Positions 8,601 through 30,418 of a DNA stretch of 30,418 nt are shown piece after piece (position 1 is the stretch's first letter; each line of letters begins with the position of its first letter). The notes beneath the pieces were generated by a model that was given only the letters and a program-made list of their open reading frames with translations, ran no database searches and was not told the origin of the DNA. A program made the position numbers and the translations under genes. Where the stretch lies: IMG/VR virus record IMGVR_UViG_3300037991_003814, positions 1-30,418 of that record; one strand, given 5' to 3'. This DNA comes from a virus (taxonomy: Duplodnaviria > Caudoviricetes).

Positions 8601-9098
8601 ATGGCAACTACAGGATCAGTACAAGGCAACATCGTTGGCCTTTACATCGACGACGCCAACGCAGACGTTGACGGCTCGGACTTCACCGATGGCACGACCA
8701 TCGATACCGCTCAGTACCACTTGGTAGGGGCAAGCACAAACGCTAGCATCAGCATCAACAACGCGTCTTACGAGACCGTGTTCAAGACCACCTCTGCTGG
8801 TGCGGAGGGCGTTGGCAGCAGCGCGCGTAGCTACGGCATCGGCGCTCAGAGCGCAAGCATGAGCATCGAGGGTGTTGTCGCTATGGACGGCAGCTACAAC
8901 ATTGAGTTCTTGGCAGGCTTGGCTATCGACAAGTCCAAGGTCACAGTGGTGTGGGCCACAAACGACGGAGCAGACTACGCTTTGGCTGGGTCAGGCTTCA
9001 TCACCTCTTTCGAGGCTAGCGGCGGCGTGAATGACTTCACGACCTATAGCTGCACCATTGAGCTTGACGGCGACGTAAGCGAGATTAACGCAGCCTAA
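8601..9098 (+). CDS. Major tail tube protein
   Basis: Beta-rich sequence with 'ASISIN', 'SMSIEGV' and 'GSGFITSFEASGGVNDFTTYSCTIELDG' (Phage_tube_2/TP901-type pattern), plus synteny. Confidence 0.85.
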   Translation: MATTGSVQGNIVGLYIDDANADVDGSDFTDGTTIDTAQYHLVGASTNASISINNASYETVFKTTSAGAEGVGSSARSYGIGAQSASMSIEGVVAMDGSYNIEFLAGLAIDKSKVTVVWATNDGADYALAGSGFITSFEASGGVNDFTTYSCTIELDGDVSEINAA

Positions 9099-9101
9099 GA
9101 C

Positions 9102-9623
9102 ATGGCTAGTACAGCGGGAAGTCTAAAAGGCAACAACCTTGGTGTGTACATTGACCGAAGGGTCACCCTCACCGAGGAGCAAGGAATGGAGAACTGGGAC
9201 ACCTTTGAGCCATTCTACAACCACCCTGCTGGTGGAGGCAGCATCAATGCCTTCACATGGATTCCCGTTGCGTACAGCAGCAATGCTACCATTAGCATCA
9301 ATACTGAAGTGCGCAAGTACATACAGCCTGTCATTAAGGCAGACCGCACGGAGAATAAGAGAACAGGAGTGACTAGTGCCACGATTTCGGTCGATGGCCT
9401 AGTCGCTCTTGATCACAGCAACTTCGATTTGGAAGAACTTGTTGATCACTTGATTAACAAGGAGAAACTAATCGTCGCTTGGTCTACCGACAACTACGAT
9501 GACTATGCCATGTTTGGCTTTGCTTATCTGTTGTCTCTGGAGGCCAACGCACCTGTAAACGGCTTTGTCGAATACTCGGCCTCTTTTGAGATATCGGGTA
9601 AACTTCTGGAATTCTATCCCTAA
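9102..9623 (+). CDS. Second tail-tube-like protein (paralogue of 8601..9098)
   Basis: Collinear similarity to the upstream gene from start (MASTAGSLKGNNLGVYID) to end (APVNGFVEYSASFEISG). Confidence 0.8.
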   Translation: MASTAGSLKGNNLGVYIDRRVTLTEEQGMENWDTFEPFYNHPAGGGSINAFTWIPVAYSSNATISINTEVRKYIQPVIKADRTENKRTGVTSATISVDGLVALDHSNFDLEELVDHLINKEKLIVAWSTDNYDDYAMFGFAYLLSLEANAPVNGFVEYSASFEISGKLLEFYP

Positions 9624-10351: not shown

Positions 10352-13235
10352 TTCTAAACTCTCCTTACAGATAGCCCTAGACCACGAGCGGTTTAGCAAG
10401 GGCCTGAGCAACGTACAAAAGAGGACTGCTCGTGCTGGTCGGTTGATGACCGACGTTGGCAAGAAGATGTCCATTGGCCTCAGCGTCCCTCTCGCTCTGA
10501 TTGGACGTCGTGTAGCGGAGACGGCTACTGAGTTCGAGTACCAAATGGCTCGTGTGGCCGCCATCAGCGGGTCGGCTGCTGACGGGCTTGCTGCTCTCAC
10601 CATGAAGGCCGAGGAGCTTGGTAGTAAGACCATCTTTACGGCACGAGCAGTAGGTCAACTGCAAGAGGAATTCGCGAAACTCGGATTCAGCGCCGAGGAA
10701 ATCAATCAGGTCACCGAGTCCACACTGAGCCTGGCTCAGGTAACGGGAGCTACCCTTCCCCGTGCCGCAGAGATTGCGGGTGCGACTTTGCGCACATTTG
10801 GTCTAGAGGCTAGCCAAATTGAGCAAGTCAACGACGTGGTGGCAGTTGCCATCAGCAAGTCGGCTTTGGACTTTGAGTCCTTTGCGGAGACCATGAAGTA
10901 CGCAGGTAGCCAGGCGGCTGTCAGCGGCATCAGCATGGAACAACTGAGCGCCGCTATGGGCGTCTTGGCCAACACGGGTGTGAAGGGGTCCATCGCTGGT
11001 ACGCGTCTGCGCATGATCTTTGCTAAGCTGGCTCAGGAGGGCGGTGATGTAGAGAAGGAATTCCTGAAGGTAATCGACGGAACGATGACGATGACCGAGG
11101 CCATCGACCGCTTCGGCATCCGCGCTGCAACGGCTATCCCTGTATTGCAGGAGAACCGTGAGGAATTCCACAAACTCAACAGACAACTCAACGACAGCGC
11201 AGGTACGCTTAGCGTTATGCAAGAGGTTATGGACGACACGTCCTTTGCCGTGCAGAAGAAGTTGACTAGTGCCCTTGAGAATCTCAGCATTCAAATTGGC
11301 AAGGCTCTCTTGCCTATGTTGAACGTCGTTCTTGAGATACTCATCAAAATCACCAATGGCTTCGCAAAGCTACCTGCCTTCCTTCAAGGCGTCATCGTAA
11401 CCATTGGGGCTTTGGTGGCGGTCATAGGTCCGTTGCTCTTTGTGTTCGGAAACCTATTGACCAGCATGGTCAGCCTTCAGTTCTTGGCGCCAGGAGTCGC
11501 AGCCGCTTTGAGCACCTACCTCCTTCCCGCCATCATCGCCATCACCGCTATTGGTGGTGTTGTCTCTTTCTTGGCTGGATTGGAGCGAGGCATGCTCAAT
11601 GTTGAGACTGCGGCCCAACGTATGGCTCGTGCAGAAGAGGAGGCGACCAAGAATAGCATCAAGCAAGCGGCCCCTGCTAGAGACCTCATCTACGCATACA
11701 AGAATCAGAACACCACCCTTGACGAACGTCGTGAGATTCTGAAGAAACTCAACGACATGCACCCAGAGACCTTCGGGAACTTGGATGCTGAGGCCACCTC
11801 CGTTGAGGACTTGGAATTGCGCTACAAAGACTTGACGAAGCAGCTCTTTGCTGTTGCCCGTGCACGTGCGTATAGCGCTGAGGCCACCCGCTTGGAACAA
11901 GAGCGTTTGGAGGCCATGAATAAGCAAAACATCGCGCAGCAGACGGTGGACAGCCTGAAGGAGGAGCAAGCGCGTGTAGAAGCCTTTAACAGAGCGCAGA
12001 GAGGCGTGCAGGGCACGAAAGAAGGGGCTGGGGTAGGCATCTTGGCCTTCGGTGGCGTAAGAGAGCTTGCTGAGGCCGAGGGAATCGTCAGAGACCAGCA
12101 GGGCATCATTGACGACGTCACCAATCAGATGGAGGAATTAGAGCGAATGATTAAGGCAGAGGGCCTTGACGCTGTGCTCAAGAATCTGTACGGCGTTGGC
12201 GATGGCGGAGGGATGGGCACTCCTGGCCCCATGACGTTCATCCAAGAGATGGAGCGCGACTTGGCCCGTTTGGAGCGGTTCACGTTCCTGACACAAGGTG
12301 TAGGCGGACAGGACACCATCACCTTCCAAGCTGACAAGCTGAAAATCCTGAACAAGGCTGTCAAAGAGTTCAGCGAGATTGACGACCCCACGGTGCGCGC
12401 CAAGTTTGCCGATGATATCGCACGCATCCAAGAGGAGATTGCGGCCCTTGCGCCAGAGGTCAAAACGCTGAAGGATCAAGAGAGTGCGTTCGATGCATAC
12501 ACCAATGCATTGCTTCGCTTCGCCGACGGACAAGATTCCATTGACCTCCGAAAGGGACTAGGTCTCTTTGCCGACGAGGGAGAGATGCTTGCTGCACAAA
12601 TCAACAACCAAGTGCAACTCGTCAACTTCTTGGCTGACGCGCTAGGTCGTGAGAACGACATGTACATTGAGCAGGCTGCTGTACTCCAAGACCTCATCGA
12701 CAAGAAGGAGAAGTTCAACAGGACGCAGCAAGAGACCGCTCAGGCCGCTGATGTAGAAACCGACAAACTGAGGGCCATCGCCGACATCTCCTTTGGCATT
12801 GGTCAGAATCTCGGTGAGGCCGCTGATGCTAGCAAGACCTTTGGTCAAGCCGCTATGGAAGCATTCAAGGATGCTGCTAAGGCTGCGGCACGTTATGCAT
12901 ACATGCGTTACCTGGCAGCCGTCATGGAGGACGAGAGCAAGCCCGAAGCAATTAGCAAGCTTGTTGCCGCTAGCGTGGGCCTTGGTGTCCTCACGGGTCT
13001 CGTCAACAGCATCCCCGCCTTAGCCGAGGGAGGTATCACCAACGGACCGATGCTCGCAATGATTGGTGACAACCGCAGTGGAAAGGAAGCGGTGATCCCG
13101 CTGGAAAAGCTCCCAAGCCTCATGGGCAAGATGGGAGGCAACAAAGAGATGGAATTAAGCACACGCCTTGATGGTCAGGACTTGGTCTTGGCAAGTCGGC
13201 GGGCTAAGTACAACATGTTCAGAACAGGTAGGTAA
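10344..13235 (+). CDS. Tail tape measure protein (TP901 family)
   Basis: 963 aa and helical, with 'FEYQMARVAAIS', 'AEELGSKTIFTA', 'GVKGSIAGTRLR', a hydrophobic mid-section and C-terminal 'LAEGGI..GP..AMIGD...EAVIPL'. Confidence 0.96.
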   Translation: MADSKLSLQIALDHERFSKGLSNVQKRTARAGRLMTDVGKKMSIGLSVPLALIGRRVAETATEFEYQMARVAAISGSAADGLAALTMKAEELGSKTIFTARAVGQLQEEFAKLGFSAEEINQVTESTLSLAQVTGATLPRAAEIAGATLRTFGLEASQIEQVNDVVAVAISKSALDFESFAETMKYAGSQAAVSGISMEQLSAAMGVLANTGVKGSIAGTRLRMIFAKLAQEGGDVEKEFLKVIDGTMTMTEAIDRFGIRAATAIPVLQENREEFHKLNRQLNDSAGTLSVMQEVMDDTSFAVQKKLTSALENLSIQIGKALLPMLNVVLEILIKITNGFAKLPAFLQGVIVTIGALVAVIGPLLFVFGNLLTSMVSLQFLAPGVAAALSTYLLPAIIAITAIGGVVSFLAGLERGMLNVETAAQRMARAEEEATKNSIKQAAPARDLIYAYKNQNTTLDERREILKKLNDMHPETFGNLDAEATSVEDLELRYKDLTKQLFAVARARAYSAEATRLEQERLEAMNKQNIAQQTVDSLKEEQARVEAFNRAQRGVQGTKEGAGVGILAFGGVRELAEAEGIVRDQQGIIDDVTNQMEELERMIKAEGLDAVLKNLYGVGDGGGMGTPGPMTFIQEMERDLARLERFTFLTQGVGGQDTITFQADKLKILNKAVKEFSEIDDPTVRAKFADDIARIQEEIAALAPEVKTLKDQESAFDAYTNALLRFADGQDSIDLRKGLGLFADEGEMLAAQINNQVQLVNFLADALGRENDMYIEQAAVLQDLIDKKEKFNRTQQETAQAADVETDKLRAIADISFGIGQNLGEAADASKTFGQAAMEAFKDAAKAAARYAYMRYLAAVMEDESKPEAISKLVAASVGLGVLTGLVNSIPALAEGGITNGPMLAMIGDNRSGKEAVIPLEKLPSLMGKMGGNKEMELSTRLDGQDLVLASRRAKYNMFRTGR

Positions 13236-16200
13236 TGGCGTATACAACTCTAGCTGAGTCGTTCTTCGACGACGACCACGGCAATCGATACAAGCTGACG
13301 ATTGATAATCTGCAAGAAAGAAATGCAGACTACAACCCCAGCAATTACTCCTTCACCGTTGGTCAGGACTTAGACATGCCAAGGGGTGGCTGCATGGTCA
13401 GTTTTGAGAATGACCTCAGTAACGGGATATACTCTCCTATCACTACCAGTAAGTTAGAGCTTGACTACTTCGTGACTACAGATGATGAACACGAATTTAT
13501 CAAGTATCTCAGCGAACAGCCTGACTACAAAATCCAAGCACATCTACGGCCTAACACTGCTGGTTCAACTGGTGTTTTCAGAGGGTTCCTTGTGCCTGAT
13601 CAAATCAAGATTGAACTTGGCGGATACCCCTACCAAGTCAAACTTGTCTTTGTTGATGGCTTGGCCCTACTGAAAGATGTGGCCTACAAGGAGCGTGACG
13701 ACAACAGCGTGTACGACGACTACCAGACGCTCAAAATCACCGTAGGAAGAGCCATCACAAGGATACGTGACGCCTACAACTACTATCGAGGATCTACTCC
13801 TCAGCAAGGAGACGCCGTTCCTATCGACATCGTTGAATACATAGACTTGTTCAACAAAAACTTTGGAACGTCCACCACCTTCGATGACGTTAGTGTCCTG
13901 TACACGCTGAAAATCAACCAACAGACATTCAATAAGCCCTCGACACTAGCCAACCCCGTGGGGACGGGCTTTCGTGTTTTCGAGGATACCATGTCCTGTT
14001 ACGAAGTCTTAGAGCATATATGCATTGCCCTAGGGTGTCGGTTGCATTTCCGTGATGACACCTTGTACTTCATCAGCCCAACGACCTACCACGATGGCAG
14101 CACGTGTCGTGGATTTAGGCACAGCAATACAAGCTTGCTAAGCTCAAGTGATGGGGACGACAGACTGGAAGACCCCTCTCTTGCAGGTGATGGCATCACG
14201 GCTCTCTCTGCTCGTGCAGACTTCACAGATTTGGACGAATACGACCTCTTAGAGGGCAGCACAAGGTATCAATTGCCTGCGCTAAGGGGTGTGGTATACA
14301 CGCACAAAGATAGTGGCTCACAGCGCGTCCTAGGCGGTCGCTACCCTATCCCTCGTACAGCACCTCCTCAGTACGCTGAGACTTTCAGCAACATCTCCTA
14401 CAACTTGGAGCAGTACGGGTATGAATCTGGCATCGAGAATGTCTTTACCACACACGTCCTCTACAGCCGCCTACGCAGCGCCCTTGGCACTCCCGACACG
14501 TACTTCGATTTCGAGAACCTGAGTGTGGTCAATAACCCATTCACGGCGCTCACAGCCAAGCACGACTACTACGAGGCCCCTGCTCGTGTGGAGCATGCCA
14601 CGGTGGATAGAGTCACCCTTCAAGGCATCAATTCAACAGAAGCGAGAGAGCTTGTCTCTTGGTCGGAAGACTATCCGCTTGAGGATACTGAGATTGACGT
14701 TCCCGACGACATCCCCTTCCGCTTTCAAACGACAGCCTACGTCAACACCAACTTCGACAACGATGTCACGATTGGTGCTAAGATTGTCTTGCGATTTGTC
14801 ATCAAGGTCGGTGGGTACTATCTCAAGCAGCACGTCACCGCTGCTAGCTATGACGACGATGAGATCCCGCACGAGGATGGATTCGAAATCATCAAGCCAG
14901 GCGGTAATGCTCGATACATGCCTCTCCGTGCCACAGCCGATGCAGAGTGGACTCAGACCGCTACGGACCGATTCGAGATTGTCTTGAACAACCCCGACCT
15001 GTTGGAGCTGCCTAGTGAGTTTGCTACGTTGCAACACATTGATGCTGATGGCAATAGTTACGAATATGGCGGGGGCATCGCCACTATCCTAGAGCCACGC
15101 ACGGATGACAGCGAGGTCGACAGGCTGCGCCACAGAAACAACATGATGGGTTCGCAGGCGGAGAACTTCCACAACTTCCGCATGCCCATCGACATCGACA
15201 TTCCTGCCTTGCCCGATGCGGCAGCTAACCAAACGGGTATCAAGGTGTACCTGAAAGATGTCATCGCATATGATGCGGGTGGCAGTAGTTTCAACGAACA
15301 AGAGATGGACGACTTCCTCCGCGCCAATGTGCGCTTTGAGAATGTCAAGTTCTTCTTGGGTACTGGCGACAAGGGCGATGACGCAACGTACTTCGTTGCA
15401 AGCGATTCACCCGACACCGACATCGTGGAGCGAATGCCGCCTAGTGTGGTTGGGGGTCGCCCTGCGGGATGGTTCGGCACGGCGGGATACCTCTATGCTG
15501 GCAGTCAGGACTACAGCCAGCAATATGCGTCGTTCATCAGCGGTGTTCCATATGTGGCGGCAAGCAAAGACTTGTATGAAGTCCATGCTGAGGAGTACAT
15601 GCGATTCCGTAATTCTGCGCGCTACGTGTACGACCTGAAGTTGCAAGCGCCAGGTTATGTGTCAGGACAGACGTTCCGCGACCTGTTGCACTACGAGGAC
15701 AGGCCCGTCTTCACGATTGACAGCACGGAACTACAGATGTGCCCCATCTCTATCCGCCATGACATCACGCAGTCTATTACGGAGATGACGTGTGTACAGA
15801 TGGGTCGAGACACCGACAGCATAACAGAGGCTCAGGACACAGGCCGAGACCCTACGGGGACTAGCGGAGACGATGTCGGAGGGTTGCCTACAGAGGCTAT
15901 CGATACGACTAGAGAGGCGCAGCGCAGGGGCAAGCGCCCTGGCCTACCCGTGGTGGACAGCAAGAAGTTGAGTCACGTCAATCTCACAGCAGACAAGACG
16001 GGTATCGCTAGCTTCACCGTGAGTGCCACCGAGAACTTGCCTCTCAGCAACTTCGAGAACGTGTTTGCCAGCGGGCAGTCTCGTACGGGCATCACCAATG
16101 ACCGCATCCTCACGGTAACCCCGACACAAGAGGTGGATGAGTTGGGCGCAGGCACAAAGGGTCAGGTACTGAAGAGTGGTGGTACGACGCAAGATCCCGA

Positions 16201-16684
16201 CTGGGGCTATGCCCCGTACATCATCGCGTCCTCCTCAACGCGCATCCCGATGTATTACGCCAACAGGTACTACATGGGTAGTAGCCTGTATGGCTGGGAT
16301 ACCGACACGGGATACAGCACAAGTCAGACTGGGAGAACGAGCCTGCTGGACGACTACGCCCACATGGGCATTGTGTGCCCAACGGACATCAGCACGCTCA
16401 AAATCTTCGGCACCCTCCGCAACGATACCAACGCAGCGGACGTCACCGTCTGGGTGTTGACGGGGGCTGCACCCAATGGCTCTAGCTCAAGCATAAGCCT
16501 GACAGACGTCAAAGAGGTGGCCGTAAGTGTGACCACCACGGATCGTCACTATAGTTTCAGCGGGACAGCTAACAACTTGAGCATCAGCGAGGGAGACCTC
16601 ATCTTCGTCTTCTTCCAGCGTACCGAGCTTCCCAATGGCTCAACCTTCGTCAATACATCATACACAATCCTTGTTGAACAATGA
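13235..16684 (+). CDS. Large tail tip / host-recognition protein
   Basis: 1149 aa, directly after the tape measure. It has a hub-like N-terminus ('SCYEVLEHICIALGCRL'), a fibre motif 'GTKGQVLKSGG..PDW' and a beta-rich C-terminal ~150-aa domain. Confidence 0.75.
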   Translation: MAYTTLAESFFDDDHGNRYKLTIDNLQERNADYNPSNYSFTVGQDLDMPRGGCMVSFENDLSNGIYSPITTSKLELDYFVTTDDEHEFIKYLSEQPDYKIQAHLRPNTAGSTGVFRGFLVPDQIKIELGGYPYQVKLVFVDGLALLKDVAYKERDDNSVYDDYQTLKITVGRAITRIRDAYNYYRGSTPQQGDAVPIDIVEYIDLFNKNFGTSTTFDDVSVLYTLKINQQTFNKPSTLANPVGTGFRVFEDTMSCYEVLEHICIALGCRLHFRDDTLYFISPTTYHDGSTCRGFRHSNTSLLSSSDGDDRLEDPSLAGDGITALSARADFTDLDEYDLLEGSTRYQLPALRGVVYTHKDSGSQRVLGGRYPIPRTAPPQYAETFSNISYNLEQYGYESGIENVFTTHVLYSRLRSALGTPDTYFDFENLSVVNNPFTALTAKHDYYEAPARVEHATVDRVTLQGINSTEARELVSWSEDYPLEDTEIDVPDDIPFRFQTTAYVNTNFDNDVTIGAKIVLRFVIKVGGYYLKQHVTAASYDDDEIPHEDGFEIIKPGGNARYMPLRATADAEWTQTATDRFEIVLNNPDLLELPSEFATLQHIDADGNSYEYGGGIATILEPRTDDSEVDRLRHRNNMMGSQAENFHNFRMPIDIDIPALPDAAANQTGIKVYLKDVIAYDAGGSSFNEQEMDDFLRANVRFENVKFFLGTGDKGDDATYFVASDSPDTDIVERMPPSVVGGRPAGWFGTAGYLYAGSQDYSQQYASFISGVPYVAASKDLYEVHAEEYMRFRNSARYVYDLKLQAPGYVSGQTFRDLLHYEDRPVFTIDSTELQMCPISIRHDITQSITEMTCVQMGRDTDSITEAQDTGRDPTGTSGDDVGGLPTEAIDTTREAQRRGKRPGLPVVDSKKLSHVNLTADKTGIASFTVSATENLPLSNFENVFASGQSRTGITNDRILTVTPTQEVDELGAGTKGQVLKSGGTTQDPDWGYAPYIIASSSTRIPMYYANRYYMGSSLYGWDTDTGYSTSQTGRTSLLDDYAHMGIVCPTDISTLKIFGTLRNDTNAADVTVWVLTGAAPNGSSSSISLTDVKEVAVSVTTTDRHYSFSGTANNLSISEGDLIFVFFQRTELPNGSTFVNTSYTILVEQ

Positions 16685-16869
16685 GTGCCACAGACGTAAC
16701 CGACTACTTCGTCCCTGACAAGCGCCAGGAGATTGGTGACCTGCCAAGTAACCCAACACAACAAGATTTGATTGACAGAATCAATTTGTTGTCGAACATC
16801 GTGAATCAAATGTTGATTGATGTAATTGGTGATACAGGAGAAGACATCCCTCCAGAAGCTAGACAATGA
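16681..16869 (+). CDS. Small acidic hypothetical protein
   Basis: 62 aa with ATGA overlaps at both ends and a short amphipathic helix. Confidence 0.65.
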   Translation: MSATDVTDYFVPDKRQEIGDLPSNPTQQDLIDRINLLSNIVNQMLIDVIGDTGEDIPPEARQ

Positions 16870-18878
16870 CCATGAAACACTTACTCTCCCTCCTCTTGCT
16901 CCTTGTGAGCACGCTGTCTTTCAGCCAGGCTCTGACATGTGGCAATCAATGCAACCACATGGACCACGACTTCGAGGACTGGCTACAAATGCGCCGTGTG
17001 GGCAATCGCAACTCAGACTACTTCGTCAAGTACATCCCCGTTGCCTTCCACTCCTACAATGGCGCCATCACCCCAGAAGTCGCAGAACAAGCGTTCTTGG
17101 TCCTCCAAGAGCAGATGTTGGGAAGCGGCATTGTGCCGTGCCGTGCGGAGGGCAATTTCTACAACGAATGGGACGACCTAGAGACAGAGCATCCCGTCTA
17201 TGACAACCCGCTCTACTATCAGGCTATGCAGGCTGTAGAGCTGGCGGGCACACCAGCTACGGACATCTGCAACATCCACGTCTTCAGCAATGTGGGAGAC
17301 GGTGTGGGTGGGTTCTCGTGGATCAATCAGAACCCCGTCACACGTCCGTGGGATGGCATCTACTTGAGGGCTGACCAGTCCAACACGTCAGTCATCACCC
17401 ATGAGATGGGGCACTACTGCGGCCTGTACCACACGTTCAACGCAGGTAGCTGCAACAACCCAGAATCCAACTGCGAGACACAGGGGGACCGCGTATGTGA
17501 CACACCACCGACTAGCGCCAACTTGAGTTGCGAAGACCCGTTCTGCCCAACAGCGGACTACACCAATCACATGGACTACACGCCCAACGATTGCCGCGAC
17601 CACTTTACGAACGGGCAGATTCTGCGTATGCATGCATTGCTGGTCAATGGCAACAGGGCATCGGTGTGGCAGTCAGGCGCCTGCTCTGACCCCAACGTGC
17701 TCGATGTGCAACTGCTGTCGGTGCGGAACACCCGTCGATGTGACGACACCTTTGTGCCTGTCGTCAAGGTGGCCAACTTCTCTGGCATTGACGCAGAAGA
17801 CGTAGTCCTCAGCGTAATCCTCAATGGTCAGGTGTGGGAGGATGTTGTGGATGTGCCTTCTCTCTCTATTGAGACTTTCGAGGGGCCTGAGATGTCCACG
17901 CCATACATGGGAGACTACCTCGGAGAGGCATACGTCTTCTTGGTGGGGGACCAGAACCCCGACAACAACGTCACCACCTTTGAGTACAACCCACGACCCC
18001 ATGCCTCCTTCAACGTGGTCATCCAGCACGATGCCTGGCCAGAATCTGAGCAATGGAAGCTGTACAAGGAAGGGCAGGTTGGAAGTTCCTTCACGGGGGT
18101 AAACTACTACGCCGCAGCGGGATACAGCACCAGCTACCCCTACGACCAAGTTCAGGATGGATTTACGTTTGAGCCGTACATGACACACGACGAAGTGTGC
18201 CTGACGGGCGGCTGCTATGGAGGGTGGTTCCGCCACCAAGGGTATGCGGGCACTCAGGAATTGTATGATTCGGACAACCCCGATTACGAGGGCCTTATCT
18301 GCGGAGTCGACGTGTACGTTGAGCGTGGATTGGATGTGGATACCCTGTACAGCTACCACGTCACAGCCTTCTCAGATTCATGCGGCCTGACCCTCCTGTG
18401 CGAGGAAGACAACTACGAGTACATGCTCGGATACATTGGAGGGCCTAGCTCTAATTCATGGGAGTACGATTACTGCGTTGAAGACATGTACATGGAACTT
18501 GTAGACGACTTCGAAGAAGAGCCAGAGAACCTGTGCTTGGGAGACTTCAACCTTGACGGAGACATCCAACTCCAAGACCTGCTCATGATCTGTGCTGAGA
18601 TGGGGCAAGGTGGGCCTACCTGCGTGTGCGACATGGACGGTGATTCGTGGGTTAACGTCGATGACTTTGCCATGTTCCTTCAGGTGTACGGCACAGACTG
18701 CGAAGGATCACAACTCGCACCACCGACAACGCGGGAACTGGAGGAGCTTGGGTACGCACCCATCTACTACACCATGGAAGGCAAGAGAGTAAACGAAACA
18801 GAGTTTTTGGCGCAGGGCATCTATCTGGCTGAGATTGAGGTCGAGGGCGTAAGGCTCAGAATAAAAGTAATGAGATGA
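16866..18878 (+). CDS. Secreted M43 (pappalysin/ulilysin-like) zinc metalloprotease with dockerin-like repeat and putative T9SS C-terminal sorting domain
   Basis: Signal peptide MKHLLSLLLLLVSTLSFS|Q, CG pro-motif, HEMGHYCGLYHTF, GDRVCDTP, Met-turn NHMDY and FTNGQILRM. Paired GDFNLDGDI/CDMDGDSWV Ca-binding loops. C-terminal YTMEGKRV...LAQGIYL...KVMR. Confidence 0.88.
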   Translation: MTMKHLLSLLLLLVSTLSFSQALTCGNQCNHMDHDFEDWLQMRRVGNRNSDYFVKYIPVAFHSYNGAITPEVAEQAFLVLQEQMLGSGIVPCRAEGNFYNEWDDLETEHPVYDNPLYYQAMQAVELAGTPATDICNIHVFSNVGDGVGGFSWINQNPVTRPWDGIYLRADQSNTSVITHEMGHYCGLYHTFNAGSCNNPESNCETQGDRVCDTPPTSANLSCEDPFCPTADYTNHMDYTPNDCRDHFTNGQILRMHALLVNGNRASVWQSGACSDPNVLDVQLLSVRNTRRCDDTFVPVVKVANFSGIDAEDVVLSVILNGQVWEDVVDVPSLSIETFEGPEMSTPYMGDYLGEAYVFLVGDQNPDNNVTTFEYNPRPHASFNVVIQHDAWPESEQWKLYKEGQVGSSFTGVNYYAAAGYSTSYPYDQVQDGFTFEPYMTHDEVCLTGGCYGGWFRHQGYAGTQELYDSDNPDYEGLICGVDVYVERGLDVDTLYSYHVTAFSDSCGLTLLCEEDNYEYMLGYIGGPSSNSWEYDYCVEDMYMELVDDFEEEPENLCLGDFNLDGDIQLQDLLMICAEMGQGGPTCVCDMDGDSWVNVDDFAMFLQVYGTDCEGSQLAPPTTRELEELGYAPIYYTMEGKRVNETEFLAQGIYLAEIEVEGVRLRIKVMR

Positions 18879-19078
18879 ACGTAGAGACCATCACCGCCCT
18901 TGTTCCCAGCATACTAGTAGCCATTGGCGTTTGGGTTTCAATGAATAGTGAGGTGGCCAAGTTGAAAGGGCGCGTGTACCGCTTGGAATCCGATCAGGGA
19001 GAGATGAAAGAGATGTTGCAGAAGTGCGTTGACGGCATCCATGAGCTTAAGCTCTTGTTGGCCAAGAAGGGTATTTGA
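18875..19078 (+). CDS. Small membrane-anchored coiled-coil protein (holin/lysis accessory candidate)
   Basis: One N-terminal hydrophobic helix followed by a heptad coiled coil. It lies at the start of the lysis region. Confidence 0.6.
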   Translation: MNVETITALVPSILVAIGVWVSMNSEVAKLKGRVYRLESDQGEMKEMLQKCVDGIHELKLLLAKKGI

Positions 19079-19111
19079 CAAAAGTGTCTATCTTGCGCCA
19101 AAATAAAGAGC

Positions 19112-19804
19112 ATGTTCAGTTATTATGGCAGCAAGAGTAAGATCGTCAATCTGTACCCAGAACCTGCGCACGACCTAATCATAGAGCCTTTTGCGGGAAG
19201 CGCTAGGTATTCTTTGAGATATTGGCAGCGCGACGTCATTTTATGCGACAAGTATCAGGTGATTACGGATGTGTGGAAGTGGCTTCAAAAGTGCAGTGCA
19301 AAGGATTTAGATGCGTTGCCCCTACTTCGCGCAGGAGATAAACTTGAAGACTACGACCTTTGCGATGAAGAGCGGAACTACCTAGGTTTTGTCATCAGCG
19401 AAGGAGTAAGTAGCCCTAGAAAGACCGTGACTCAAAGAGCCGCGAAGAAAGTCAACTACAAGATTCAGAACACAAAAAACATTCTCCATAAGATTAGGCA
19501 TTGGAAAATTGTTTGCGATTCCTACCAATCTATGAGGTCATTGCAAACTGAGGCAACTTGGTTTGTAGACCCTCCTTACCAGAATGGAGGCGAGCACTAC
19601 CCTTGTTCTTCCAAACAAATAGACTACAACGACTTAGCCGAATTTTGTCTAACTCGTAATGGACAGGTGATTGTGTGTGAAAACAACAACGCTAATTGGC
19701 TGCCTTTCAATAACCTGAAATCTGTTTGGGGAGGTCGCAAGTCCAGCACAGAAGTATTATATTGCAACAACCAACCCATTCAGCATGGACTTTTTTTTCA
19801 ATAA
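19112..19804 (+). CDS. DNA adenine methyltransferase (D12/Dam-like, group alpha)
   Basis: 'FSYYGSK', motif I 'EPFAGSA' and catalytic 'FVDPPY'. Confidence 0.9.
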   Translation: MFSYYGSKSKIVNLYPEPAHDLIIEPFAGSARYSLRYWQRDVILCDKYQVITDVWKWLQKCSAKDLDALPLLRAGDKLEDYDLCDEERNYLGFVISEGVSSPRKTVTQRAAKKVNYKIQNTKNILHKIRHWKIVCDSYQSMRSLQTEATWFVDPPYQNGGEHYPCSSKQIDYNDLAEFCLTRNGQVIVCENNNANWLPFNNLKSVWGGRKSSTEVLYCNNQPIQHGLFFQ

Positions 19805-19955
19805 CTGGAGTGAGATTCTTCTCACCATCATCACCGCAGCGGGTACAATCACCGCGCTGACCGAAACCGAGAAAGACGATAAAATCGTCGATGTACTGAG
19901 ACGCATCCTTCAAGCTGTCGTCTTGGGAAAGAATCGTCGCCGCCTCAAAAAGTAA
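19785..19955 (+). CDS. Putative holin (56 aa, not in ORF track)
   Basis: Translated by hand as MDFFFNNWSEILLTIITAAGTITALTETEKDDKIVDVLRRILQAVVLGKNRRRLKK: a hydrophobic helix with a basic tail. It ends 2 nt before the amidase ATG. Confidence 0.7.
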   Translation: MDFFFNNWSEILLTIITAAGTITALTETEKDDKIVDVLRRILQAVVLGKNRRRLKK

Positions 19956-19957
19956 GC

Positions 19958-20407
19958 ATGAGGCCCGTCAACAAGATCATCATTCACCATACTGCAACTA
20001 AACGCGAGGAGCAGTACGATGTGGAATGGTGCAATCGCCTTCACAAGTCCTTTGGATGGAAGATGATTGGCTACCACTTCTTCATTGAGCATGATGGCAA
20101 GTTGAGTGCTGGTCGCCCACTTGGCATGACAGGAGCGCACGCCAAGGGGAACAACTACGACAGCATAGGGGTCGCTTTCGTCGGTGGGAGGGACACACGC
20201 AACAAGGATGCTTGCACAATCACAGAGGCGCAATGGTTGACTCTACAGAAGATTTGCAACGCCTTCCGTGTGCTCTACGGCGACAACATTCCTATACATG
20301 GCCACCGCATGTACAAGAACACCTTTTGCCCTGGCTTTGATGCCGAGAAGATAGACTGGGATGGCACGTGGGAAGACGCGGAGAAAGTCATCTACCCGAA
20401 AGGGTAA
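19958..20407 (+). CDS. Endolysin, N-acetylmuramoyl-L-alanine amidase (Amidase_2, T7 lysozyme-like)
   Basis: 'IIIHHTAT', 'IGYHFFI', 'GAHAKGNN..SIGV' and 'HGH....TFCPGF' zinc ligands. Confidence 0.93.
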   Translation: MRPVNKIIIHHTATKREEQYDVEWCNRLHKSFGWKMIGYHFFIEHDGKLSAGRPLGMTGAHAKGNNYDSIGVAFVGGRDTRNKDACTITEAQWLTLQKICNAFRVLYGDNIPIHGHRMYKNTFCPGFDAEKIDWDGTWEDAEKVIYPKG

Positions 20408-30148: not shown

Positions 30149-30365
30149 GAAACCCAGCAACGACGGGCCTTTCAGCGGGTCACGAATTCGTGAACGATTC
30201 CAGATCTGAACCCGCGCCGTCCAGATCTTCGGCAGATCTGAACAAAGGCCAACCAAGAAACCCAGCAACCACGGGGCTTTCAGAGCCTCGACCTCCTGAA
30301 ACCCGCGTAAACACTGGGCTTCAAGGCCGCGAAACCGTGAAACCCAGCAACCACGGGGCTTCCAG
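30149..30365. repeat. Cluster of four ~27-bp imperfect dyad repeats (GAAACCCagcaaccacgGGGCTTTC consensus)
   Basis: Copies start at 30149, 30257, 30298 and 30339. The 30257 and 30339 copies share 23 identical bases, and the last three are spaced exactly 41 bp apart. Confidence 0.85.
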
Positions 30366-30418
30366 GGGTGGGGGGTGCGAATCTCATGTTCGAACAGCAA
30401 CAGAAAAACCAACACGAC
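30364..30418. other. Candidate cos/packaging region (continues into positions 1-45)
   Basis: G-rich tracts (GGGGTGGGGGGTG at the end, GGGTGGGGGGGGG near position 27) would lie directly upstream of terS if the window is circular. This is where cos sits in HK97-like phages. Confidence 0.45.

Follow-up and report, generated by a model that had tools for sequence, protein, structure and literature searches.

What use a lytic marine phage could make of a secreted protease, and by which route such an enzyme might leave the infected cell, are questions raised by the virus record IMGVR_UViG_3300037991_003814. The record was analysed over its whole length of 30,418 bases (hereafter the window); its completeness is rated at 100%, and family scans found in it genes for terminase, portal, capsid, tail tube, tape measure and amidase as well as replication genes. 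On its plus strand, at 16866-18878, lies an open reading frame (ORF) of 670 amino acids (aa) with no internal stops, which encodes an M43 (pappalysin-family) metalloprotease zymogen. We propose that this protease is exported through its host's type IX secretion system (T9SS) and that it trims proteins of the host surface, a chain of steps to which, taken whole, we give a probability of roughly one half. Export through the host T9SS, taken by itself, is judged likely from sequence comparison and structural models.

The protease and its family

The protein contains 24 cysteines, and 104 Asp and Glu residues against 28 Lys and Arg. Residues 1-20 (16866-16925, with a second in-frame ATG at 16872), read by eye, look like a Sec signal peptide, with K/H, a Leu-rich core and S-F-S ahead of a predicted cut before Gln21. 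They are followed by a pro-segment of approximately residues 21-48 (16926-17009, delimited by conservation, its end being approximate), which holds a Cys25-Gly26 switch at 16938-16943 (the motif is defined in PMC6949598, available text), and by the catalytic domain (17019-17690), placed by PF05572 and by alignments, in which the zinc motif lies at 17400-17432, the Met-turn at 17565-17579 and Asn241 at 17586-17588. The first-pass annotation of this DNA had described a signal peptide ending before Gln, a Cys-Gly pro-segment and an intact M43 domain, and this description was borne out, as Q21, C25-G26, H179, E180, H183, H189, M236 and Y238, and likewise G186 of the HEXXHXXGXXH motif, are invariant in 26/26 aligned proteins, and PF05572 gives 59.2 bits where its cut-off is 23. 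In the PDB, the family profile picks out pappalysins, mirolysin and ulilysin, and the Met-turn and the downstream Tyr were aligned to mirolysin. The Cys-Gly switch is known by sequence, the structure model having a predicted local distance difference test score (pLDDT) below 50 there; the full-length AlphaFold2 (AF2) model was poor (pLDDT 58, with residues 187-276 below 50) and was used for the CARDB domain and for family-level matches only. The protein is an M43 cysteine-switch zymogen with predicted catalytic activity. A structural role in the virion was considered and rejected because the protease has a signal peptide.

In mirolysin, Asp289 was linked to specificity for Arg and Lys, and Cys23 and Arg21 were linked to latency (Guevara et al. 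2020, PMC6949598, available text). The window protease has Asn241 at the place of Asp289, in the S1' position, and no Arg stands two residues before the switch Cys of its pro-segment. For these two reasons Arg/Lys specificity is not expected, and the enzyme is predicted to work like a pappalysin with a different cleavage preference. The S1' residue in the window clade (n=21) is Asn in 14 proteins, His in 5 and Asp in none; it is Asp in 24/24 homologues from the order of genome G001, labelled Flavobacteriales, and a mixture of Glu, Gln and Asp in the nearest cellular clade. Because of that mixture the loss of the S1' Asp is not specific to phages, and it was dropped as a phage innovation. The window clade has an S1' residue of its own, suggesting a choice of substrate.

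Full-length relatives form 26 clusters with 43-82% identity over 96-100% of the length. On viral contigs, 63 loci were found by protein search and 80 of 90 were kept from a search with a distant-relative profile, and removal of duplicates and one fragment left 124 viral loci including the window (the counts omit the fragment L128 and nine duplicate rows, L135-L140, L142, L144 and L145). A tree was built from 136 catalytic domains after collapsing sequences over 88% identical and dropping 20 cellular rows, which were long branches and a group of 400-aa paralogues. One clade in it takes in 60 of the 63 viral representatives at 0.984, a FastTree local support rather than a formal one-clade test. 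This clade also holds nine proteins of unknown origin and none from the sampled cellular genomes; three viral proteins lie elsewhere. The ratio of nonsynonymous to synonymous substitution (dN/dS), computed from 13 genes with 7-17 unsaturated pairs of 78 for each part (16/78 for the tail), was 0.12 for the catalytic domain, 0.24 for the CARDB domain, 0.03 for the second sandwich, 0.15 for the dockerin-like domain and 0.23 for the C-terminal tail. The GC content at third codon positions (GC3) is 0.69 in the protease gene and the same in the terminase gene. The protease is an old phage gene under purifying selection.

The opposite possibility, that of a one-off and decaying capture of a host gene, can draw on the finding that no cultured phage among 50,697 records carries the protease, save one weak 12% match. 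It is contradicted by the 26 full-length clusters, the 63 and 80 viral loci, the large phage clade, dN/dS values of 0.03-0.24, the GC3 shared with terminase, and the presence of the gene at about 98% identity in sequencing runs made ten years later, and we give it practically no chance. The gene is therefore not absent from relatives, an outcome that the first-pass annotation had named as fatal to its proposal. It also moves between phage backbones: one related record (L110) has a tape measure 66%, a tail tip 56% and a holin-like gene 85% identical to those of the window, and its same slot holds an M43 gene of a different clade. A scan of genome contigs for the motif of the close clade gave 12 loci, at which all M43 matches were partial as well as distant. 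Two M43 paralogues stand in tandem in larger viral records (L113:3926-8169, L114 and L115).

Accessory domains, C-terminal tail and host lineage

Behind the catalytic domain lies a CARDB-type domain (17691-17999, residues 276-378), whose fold was matched by Foldseek to 2kl6 and 3idu (E 9e-5), with a root-mean-square deviation (rmsd) of 2.8 over 109 columns for 2kl6; PF07705 reached 28.3 bits against a cut-off of 22.7 in the homologue of L078. An Ig-like domain had been read here earlier, and the CARDB fold agrees with it. The second domain (18000-18500) is mostly beta in its AF2 strands, and matches to cellular M43 homologues extend to profile positions of about 490-530 and so cover it. No family name was found for this domain, the ESM Atlas score of 0.83 for residues 376-548 being uninformative. 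The third is a Cys-bracketed, dockerin-like double Ca-loop domain (18534-18701), of which residues 557-612 take the fold of a dockerin (54 columns of 2y3n at an rmsd of 1.1; Z 7.7). The dockerin-like calcium repeat of the first-pass annotation thus stands as a fold and falls short as a profile match, the scores of the hidden Markov models (HMMs) lying under their cut-offs (14 against 22.9 bits for PF00404, 12-14.7 against 29 bits for NF041540). Three other loci (L122:11332-11547, L076:11416-11604 and L103:2305-2469) encode small phage proteins, 54-71 aa long, that have just one dockerin-like Ca loop; the two that were scanned gave no PHROG match.

The protein ends in a tail (18720-18875) that profile, conservation and model assign to a short, type-A-like C-terminal domain (CTD) of the T9SS, with a predicted PorU site after Pro-Thr at 18720-18728, motif B at 18765-18782, motif D at 18813-18827 and the motif E Lys at 18864. 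When compared by hhalign with CTDs that match PF18962, the tail gave a probability of 86% (E 5e-6), and a separately aligned tail 94%; the best non-overlapping stretch of the protein reached 20%, the reversed tail 0.15% and the best of 30 shuffles 4.6%. The motif B Gly, the motif D G-x-Y and the motif E Lys are invariant in 36/36 and 25/25 phage tails. The 49 residues after the predicted site at Pro-Thr621 form three strands (633-635, 652-659 and 662-669) in a model with a pLDDT of 89. Short CTDs of 43-55 residues and three strands, which are cleaved and glycosylated, have been described in Prevotella intermedia (Ye et al. 2025, PMC11969387, available text); in these, 6-11 aa separate the site from motif B and 1-6 aa separate motifs B and D, and by our own reading the phage tail has about 11 and about 5 aa. 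Among cellular homologues a long type-A-like CTD ends the protein at 24/25 loci, the remaining one being cut by the contig end, and the two that were scanned pass TIGR04183. A profile of the phage tails found six matches in five candidate host genomes, all six of them within long type A CTDs, which confirms that the tail descends from such domains. The first-pass annotation had made its export proposal depend on a CTD-like end, and the hhalign result, the invariant motifs and the three-strand model all agree with such an end.

Other predicted T9SS cargo is carried by sister phages. In the sister clade, a protein with a signal peptide (a cluster of 34 ORFs) lies directly after the M43 gene and ends in a type B CTD, with PF13585 at 49-55 bits in 4/4 proteins scanned and TIGR04131 over its cut-off in 2/2; one phage M43 protein, that of L129, has a type B CTD at its own C-terminus, and TIGR04183 is over its cut-off in 9/43 phage records. 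The cluster of 34 (L078-L131, for example L091:2752-3759) has a conserved length of 300-350 aa, with longer versions in L076, L077 and L122-L125. Phage proteins of about 690-810 aa with type A CTDs were observed in L094 (9755-12196), L099, L111 and L131, and these adjoin a 121-aa thioredoxin-fold protein with a signal peptide and a 343-aa protein resembling an outer-membrane barrel, as an island of secreted proteins. In the putatively viral 113-kb record L077 (1239-3953) a TonB-dependent receptor gene and a type B cargo gene lie beside the M43 gene.

Which bacterium might provide the T9SS was approached from several sides. A Shine-Dalgarno 5-mer precedes 1/40 starts in the window, and A is found at -12 in 26/40; scarce Shine-Dalgarno sequences together with A at -12 fit Bacteroidota. 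The best matches of the terminase are Streptococcus phages at 42% identity and are uninformative on the host. The sequencing runs that hold window DNA are labelled marine or seawater, and no RNA run is among them. Homologues of the protease were found in 238/401 genomes of the order of G001, with a best score of 310 bits, and the dockerin-like domain in 0/401 of them; this order was dropped as donor for the lack of that domain and for its lower score (310 against 453 bits). The Bacteroidota order of genome G541 has homologues in 76/251 genomes at E <= 1e-100, reaching 453 bits, and the dockerin-like domain in 16/121, and together with P0050 (NCBI label: Flavobacteriales bacterium) it surrounds the phage clade in the tree. 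PorV was found in 8/8 genomes tested from the nearest cellular clade, and the same eight have 12-54 dockerin-like domain matches each. The GC content of the loci is 0.51-0.61 in four of five genomes of 2.0-2.4 Mb, against 0.525 for the phage, and 0.43-0.47 in the fifth. From the tree and the shared domain, the host is probably a T9SS-bearing member of the Bacteroidota order of G541, and the dockerin-like domain may serve to mark the host of more than 120 viral loci from uncultured phages.

The abundance of such cellular homologues, which are common secreted proteases in both orders (238/401 and 76/251 genomes), could also mean that the phage enzyme, once exported by T9SS, digests outside protein and supplies nitrogen and amino acids for virions. 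Its relative cytophagalysin is gelatinolytic (PMC11674741, available text), and the long viral record L077 has a TonB-dependent receptor as well. Against this, the host lineage already owns M43 enzymes; the gene takes 2 kb of a 30-kb phage and is in the late operon, and the S1' residue peculiar to the window clade (Asn 14 and His 5 of 21) suggests a chosen substrate. A nutritional role is for these reasons held to be rather improbable.

In the host lineage the dockerin-like domain forms the C-terminal end of the protein in 16/16 and 14/15 inspected rows. Such ends were noted in L211-L225 and L264-L279 (G541, G545, G527, G906 and relatives), where they are a possible sorting or anchoring signal, and a half copy of the domain ends the cellular M43 protein of L246. 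Among the 105 complete phage proteins, 51 have the domain followed by the short tail, 16 end at the domain, 27 have a non-CTD extension of 25-37 residues and 11 are without the domain. It could be argued from its presence in 94 of these 105, and from its terminal position and its 12-54 copies per host genome, that the domain is the true sorting or anchoring signal of an undescribed host pathway, that the CTD-like tail is optional, and that long and short forms share one route. No partner or pathway was found, the cohesin family PF00963 being matched in 1/3 candidate host-lineage genomes; the 27 short forms add residues after the domain, and an unused tail would not remain under selection. We hold this reading to be very doubtful, and keep to the T9SS as the probable route of export. 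The shared domain points to an unnamed surface-docking system.

Proposed function and genomic position

The mechanism that we propose would begin with expression from the late operon and Sec transport into the periplasm, where the protease would fold with disulfides and calcium and stay latent through Cys25. The three-strand tail is predicted to bind PorV and to cross the SprA translocon, PorU cutting after Pro-Thr621. With this cut the new C-terminus would lie close to the dockerin-like domain, an arrangement seen in many secreted proteins of the host lineage, and the enzyme might be retained at the surface, where removal of the pro-segment would activate it. It may then cut host surface proteins, for instance adhesins that likely serve as phage receptors, and such trimming would lower superinfection as well as the loss of progeny on the host cell, on debris or on protein matrix. 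In flavobacteria, phage resistance was mapped to T9SS and gliding genes, and adhesins secreted by T9SS are thought to be receptors (PMC9804748, available text). Trimming of the surface is favoured because of this mapping, because adhesins are the likely receptors, and because these phages show no integrase. A lack of visible integrase had been stated earlier and is upheld: no integrase was found among the 38 ORFs scanned in the window, PF07508 (serine recombinase) included, and there was no match to PF00589 (tyrosine integrase) in 43 phage records, 19 of them near-complete, or to PF07508 in 44. The absent integrase also rules against a lysogenic-conversion moron of an integrating prophage, an argument that concerns an integrating lifestyle only.

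At six related loci, proteins encoded in the tail region carry one half of the dockerin-like motif, scoring 21-28 bits where reversed controls over 2,198 genes gave 4.7. These proteins (L078:368-4504, L079:755-4582, L081:218-4225, L086:3556-4956, L088:3297-4721 and L116:3285-4709) have no evident signal peptide. It is possible that they mimic the host tag for receptor binding. The surface reading could then take a narrower form, in which the host lineage would fix dozens of its secreted proteins to its surface by the Cys-bracketed dockerin-like tag, the lytic phage exports a protease bearing the full tag by means of a miniature T9SS signal, the protease docks on a site of the host and cuts it, and the half tag of the tail proteins binds the same site. 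Such tag-guided destruction of the receptor is offered as a speculation with the odds well against it; if true, a lytic phage would be acting from outside the cell to remove the receptor that it uses itself, and a so far undescribed system by which abundant marine Bacteroidota anchor proteins would be revealed.

Several observations weigh against export by T9SS and surface trimming. The tail has no match at all to TIGR04183 or PF18962 and lacks the PNP motif, and it has three strands where the canonical type A CTD is a seven-strand sandwich. The type-A CTD of the first-pass annotation is hence retained in its motifs B, D and E and in its type A descent, and given up in its canonical form; sequence and model make the tail a shortened three-strand CTD. 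In related material, 3/29 homologues lacking a PF18962 match gave a sub-cut-off score of 12-13 bits, and the tails of sister records match model positions 23-71 in a TIGR04183 scan (E 5e-4 to 9e-3). Of known structures, HBP35 matches the tail best, through its C-terminal region, but the match is weak (Foldseek E 0.26; VIA Z 4.5, in the common range), with the CTDs of NucA and RgpB ranking lower. None of the six matches in the five candidate host genomes is a short CTD, and short CTDs are reported solely for P. intermedia (PMC11969387, available text). As 43/105 complete phage homologues have the dockerin-like domain and no CTD, T9SS export is not family-wide, and the window clade is the sister of these CTD-less short forms (support 0.984). 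The host is arrived at indirectly, and substrate, expression and secretion rest on prediction from sequence and model; a late gene of a lytic phage would have little time to act. The tail-tip protein of the window itself is without the half-dockerin motif of its relatives. Finally, a lysis gene (holin-like or endolysin) lies within 1.6 kb of the protease gene in 43/79 loci, against 37/210 for other long genes.

This last count is descriptive only, because the loci are related and gene-centred; the 79 are those with both flanks, and a looser count of 53/79, which used clusters labelled by appearance, was replaced. It brings up the alternative that the protease is an accessory of lysis, a periplasmic zymogen that acts on envelope proteins or matrix once holin and endolysin have opened the cell, its tail being secondary. 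ATGA overlaps couple the protease ORF to its neighbours on both sides: upstream to a 62-aa ORF (16681-16869) without PHROG match, and downstream to a 67-aa holin-like membrane protein (18875-19078; phrog_1296 holin, E 1.4e-4, weak), which is its usual neighbour. Lysis genes and protease are on the same strand in 38 of the 43 loci and on opposite strands in 5, and protease, holin-like gene and amidase stay together where an intervening methyltransferase gene has been lost; the 43/105 homologues without CTD would fit as well. In 36/79 loci, on the other side, there is no nearby lysis gene, and some protease genes lie before GroEL/GroES or at the end of a replication operon; the adjacent loci are not independent of one another, and the motifs of the tail, all invariant, are under selection. 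The protease gene of L005 and that of L024 lie on the other strand, pointing towards the lysis genes, and a TAnnTTTG site, which is a Bacteroidota promoter consensus, is found just upstream of it in seven loci, giving the look of a moron slot. To us the position looks more like an accessory (moron) slot at the ends of operons than like a sign of lysis function, and an accessory role in lysis is considered unlikely, though not negligibly so. Short M43 forms directly before GroEL/GroES or GroES were seen in L026, L028, L030, L031, L034, L035 and L038 and in L044-L050, L055, L057 and L059. In the window TAnnTTTG occurs 7 times against 12 expected, so that its single well-spaced site (28158, minus strand) is no evidence alone.

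The genes around the protease, all on the plus strand, include a 1149-aa gene (13235-16684) that is a probable tail tip by its position after the tape measure gene, without a family match and with 56% identity to its L110 counterpart. Beyond the holin-like gene follow an adenine methyltransferase (19112-19804, PF02086), a 56-aa hydrophobic ORF (19785-19955; phrog_9685 and phrog_402, both of unknown function) that by appearance is a possible second holin, and an amidase endolysin (19958-20407; PF01510 at 54.6 bits, phrog_822). The ATGA overlaps noted in the first-pass annotation are confirmed; the placing of the gene directly between tail tip and lysis genes has to be amended by the 62-aa ORF before the protease and by the variable methyltransferase before the amidase. 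The methyltransferase and its upstream intergenic stretch (19079-19758) are missing from two 2024 seawater runs of one study (X5 and X7), in whose contigs the holin-like gene is joined to the amidase region and the protease is kept. This stretch is a mobile insert in the lysis region. Elsewhere in the window there are a tandem pair of tail-tube-like genes (8601-9623; PF06199, phrog_1407), a GP88-family gene (PF17338; 28549-29640, minus strand) that opens the leftward operon and, within 30200-30418, a short motif that recurs over the final 200 bases.

Comparison with known systems

The first-pass annotation had put the locus forward as a candidate for a new system, a claim that does not hold in a categorical sense, because phage-encoded T9SS cargo was already proposed in print: Bellas et al. 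(2020; PMC7468147, available text) described type A cargo in Cryophage and suggested superinfection exclusion. Cryophage and the window phage are alike in being Bacteroidota phages predicted to use the T9SS of the host, both known from prediction. Cryophage is a single phage of 76 kb with endoglucanase, GH39 and PA14 cargo that varies among variants, whereas the window belongs to a protease family found at over 120 viral loci, whose backbones are unrelated, and its tail escapes standard HMMs. Since standard HMMs miss this tail, phage T9SS cargo is likely undercounted. The surface route has been proposed once in print, and no test of it turned up in the literature search. The same search, which covered few subscription journals, found no paper on a phage M43 protease or pappalysin; the supplements of PMC7468147 list phage peptidases, which could include M43. 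Were our proposal true, lytic marine phages would routinely use the host T9SS to place an enzyme on the surface of the infected cell, and the turnover of protein in marine particles would be affected by extracellular proteolysis that phages drive in Bacteroidota.

Among proteases, mirolysin and ulilysin (PMC6949598, available text) have in common with the window enzyme the extended zinc motif, the Met-turn with its downstream Tyr and a short Cys-Gly pro-segment, and cytophagalysin CPL1 (PMC11674741, available text) resembles it further in its Ig-like domains and in a T9SS CTD that has been proposed for it. Unlike the unicellular pappalysins, the window enzyme is encoded by a phage, has Asn for Asp at S1' and no pro-segment Arg two residues before the Cys, and adds a dockerin-like domain and a three-strand tail. 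Cellulosome dockerins (2y3n and 2ozn; PF00404) and the GC-type anchor NF041540 resemble the dockerin-like domain in having two Ca loops, each followed by a helix; the window domain differs by lying under both HMM cut-offs and by its invariant Cys brackets, and no cohesin partner was identified for it. P. intermedia's short CTDs come closest to the tail, with about 49 residues after Pro-Thr, a Gly that is invariant both in motif B and in motif D, GxY, a basic residue in motif E and after motif B, and three predicted strands (PMC11969387, available text). Those CTDs are chromosomal and were shown to be cleaved and glycosylated, whereas the window tail belongs to a marine phage and is predicted only, which makes it a candidate for a minimal T9SS signal outside Prevotella. 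What is new beside these systems is a widespread clade of phage proteases, the occurrence of a predicted minimal CTD beyond Prevotella, a docking domain that phage and host have in common, and a narrowed host lineage.

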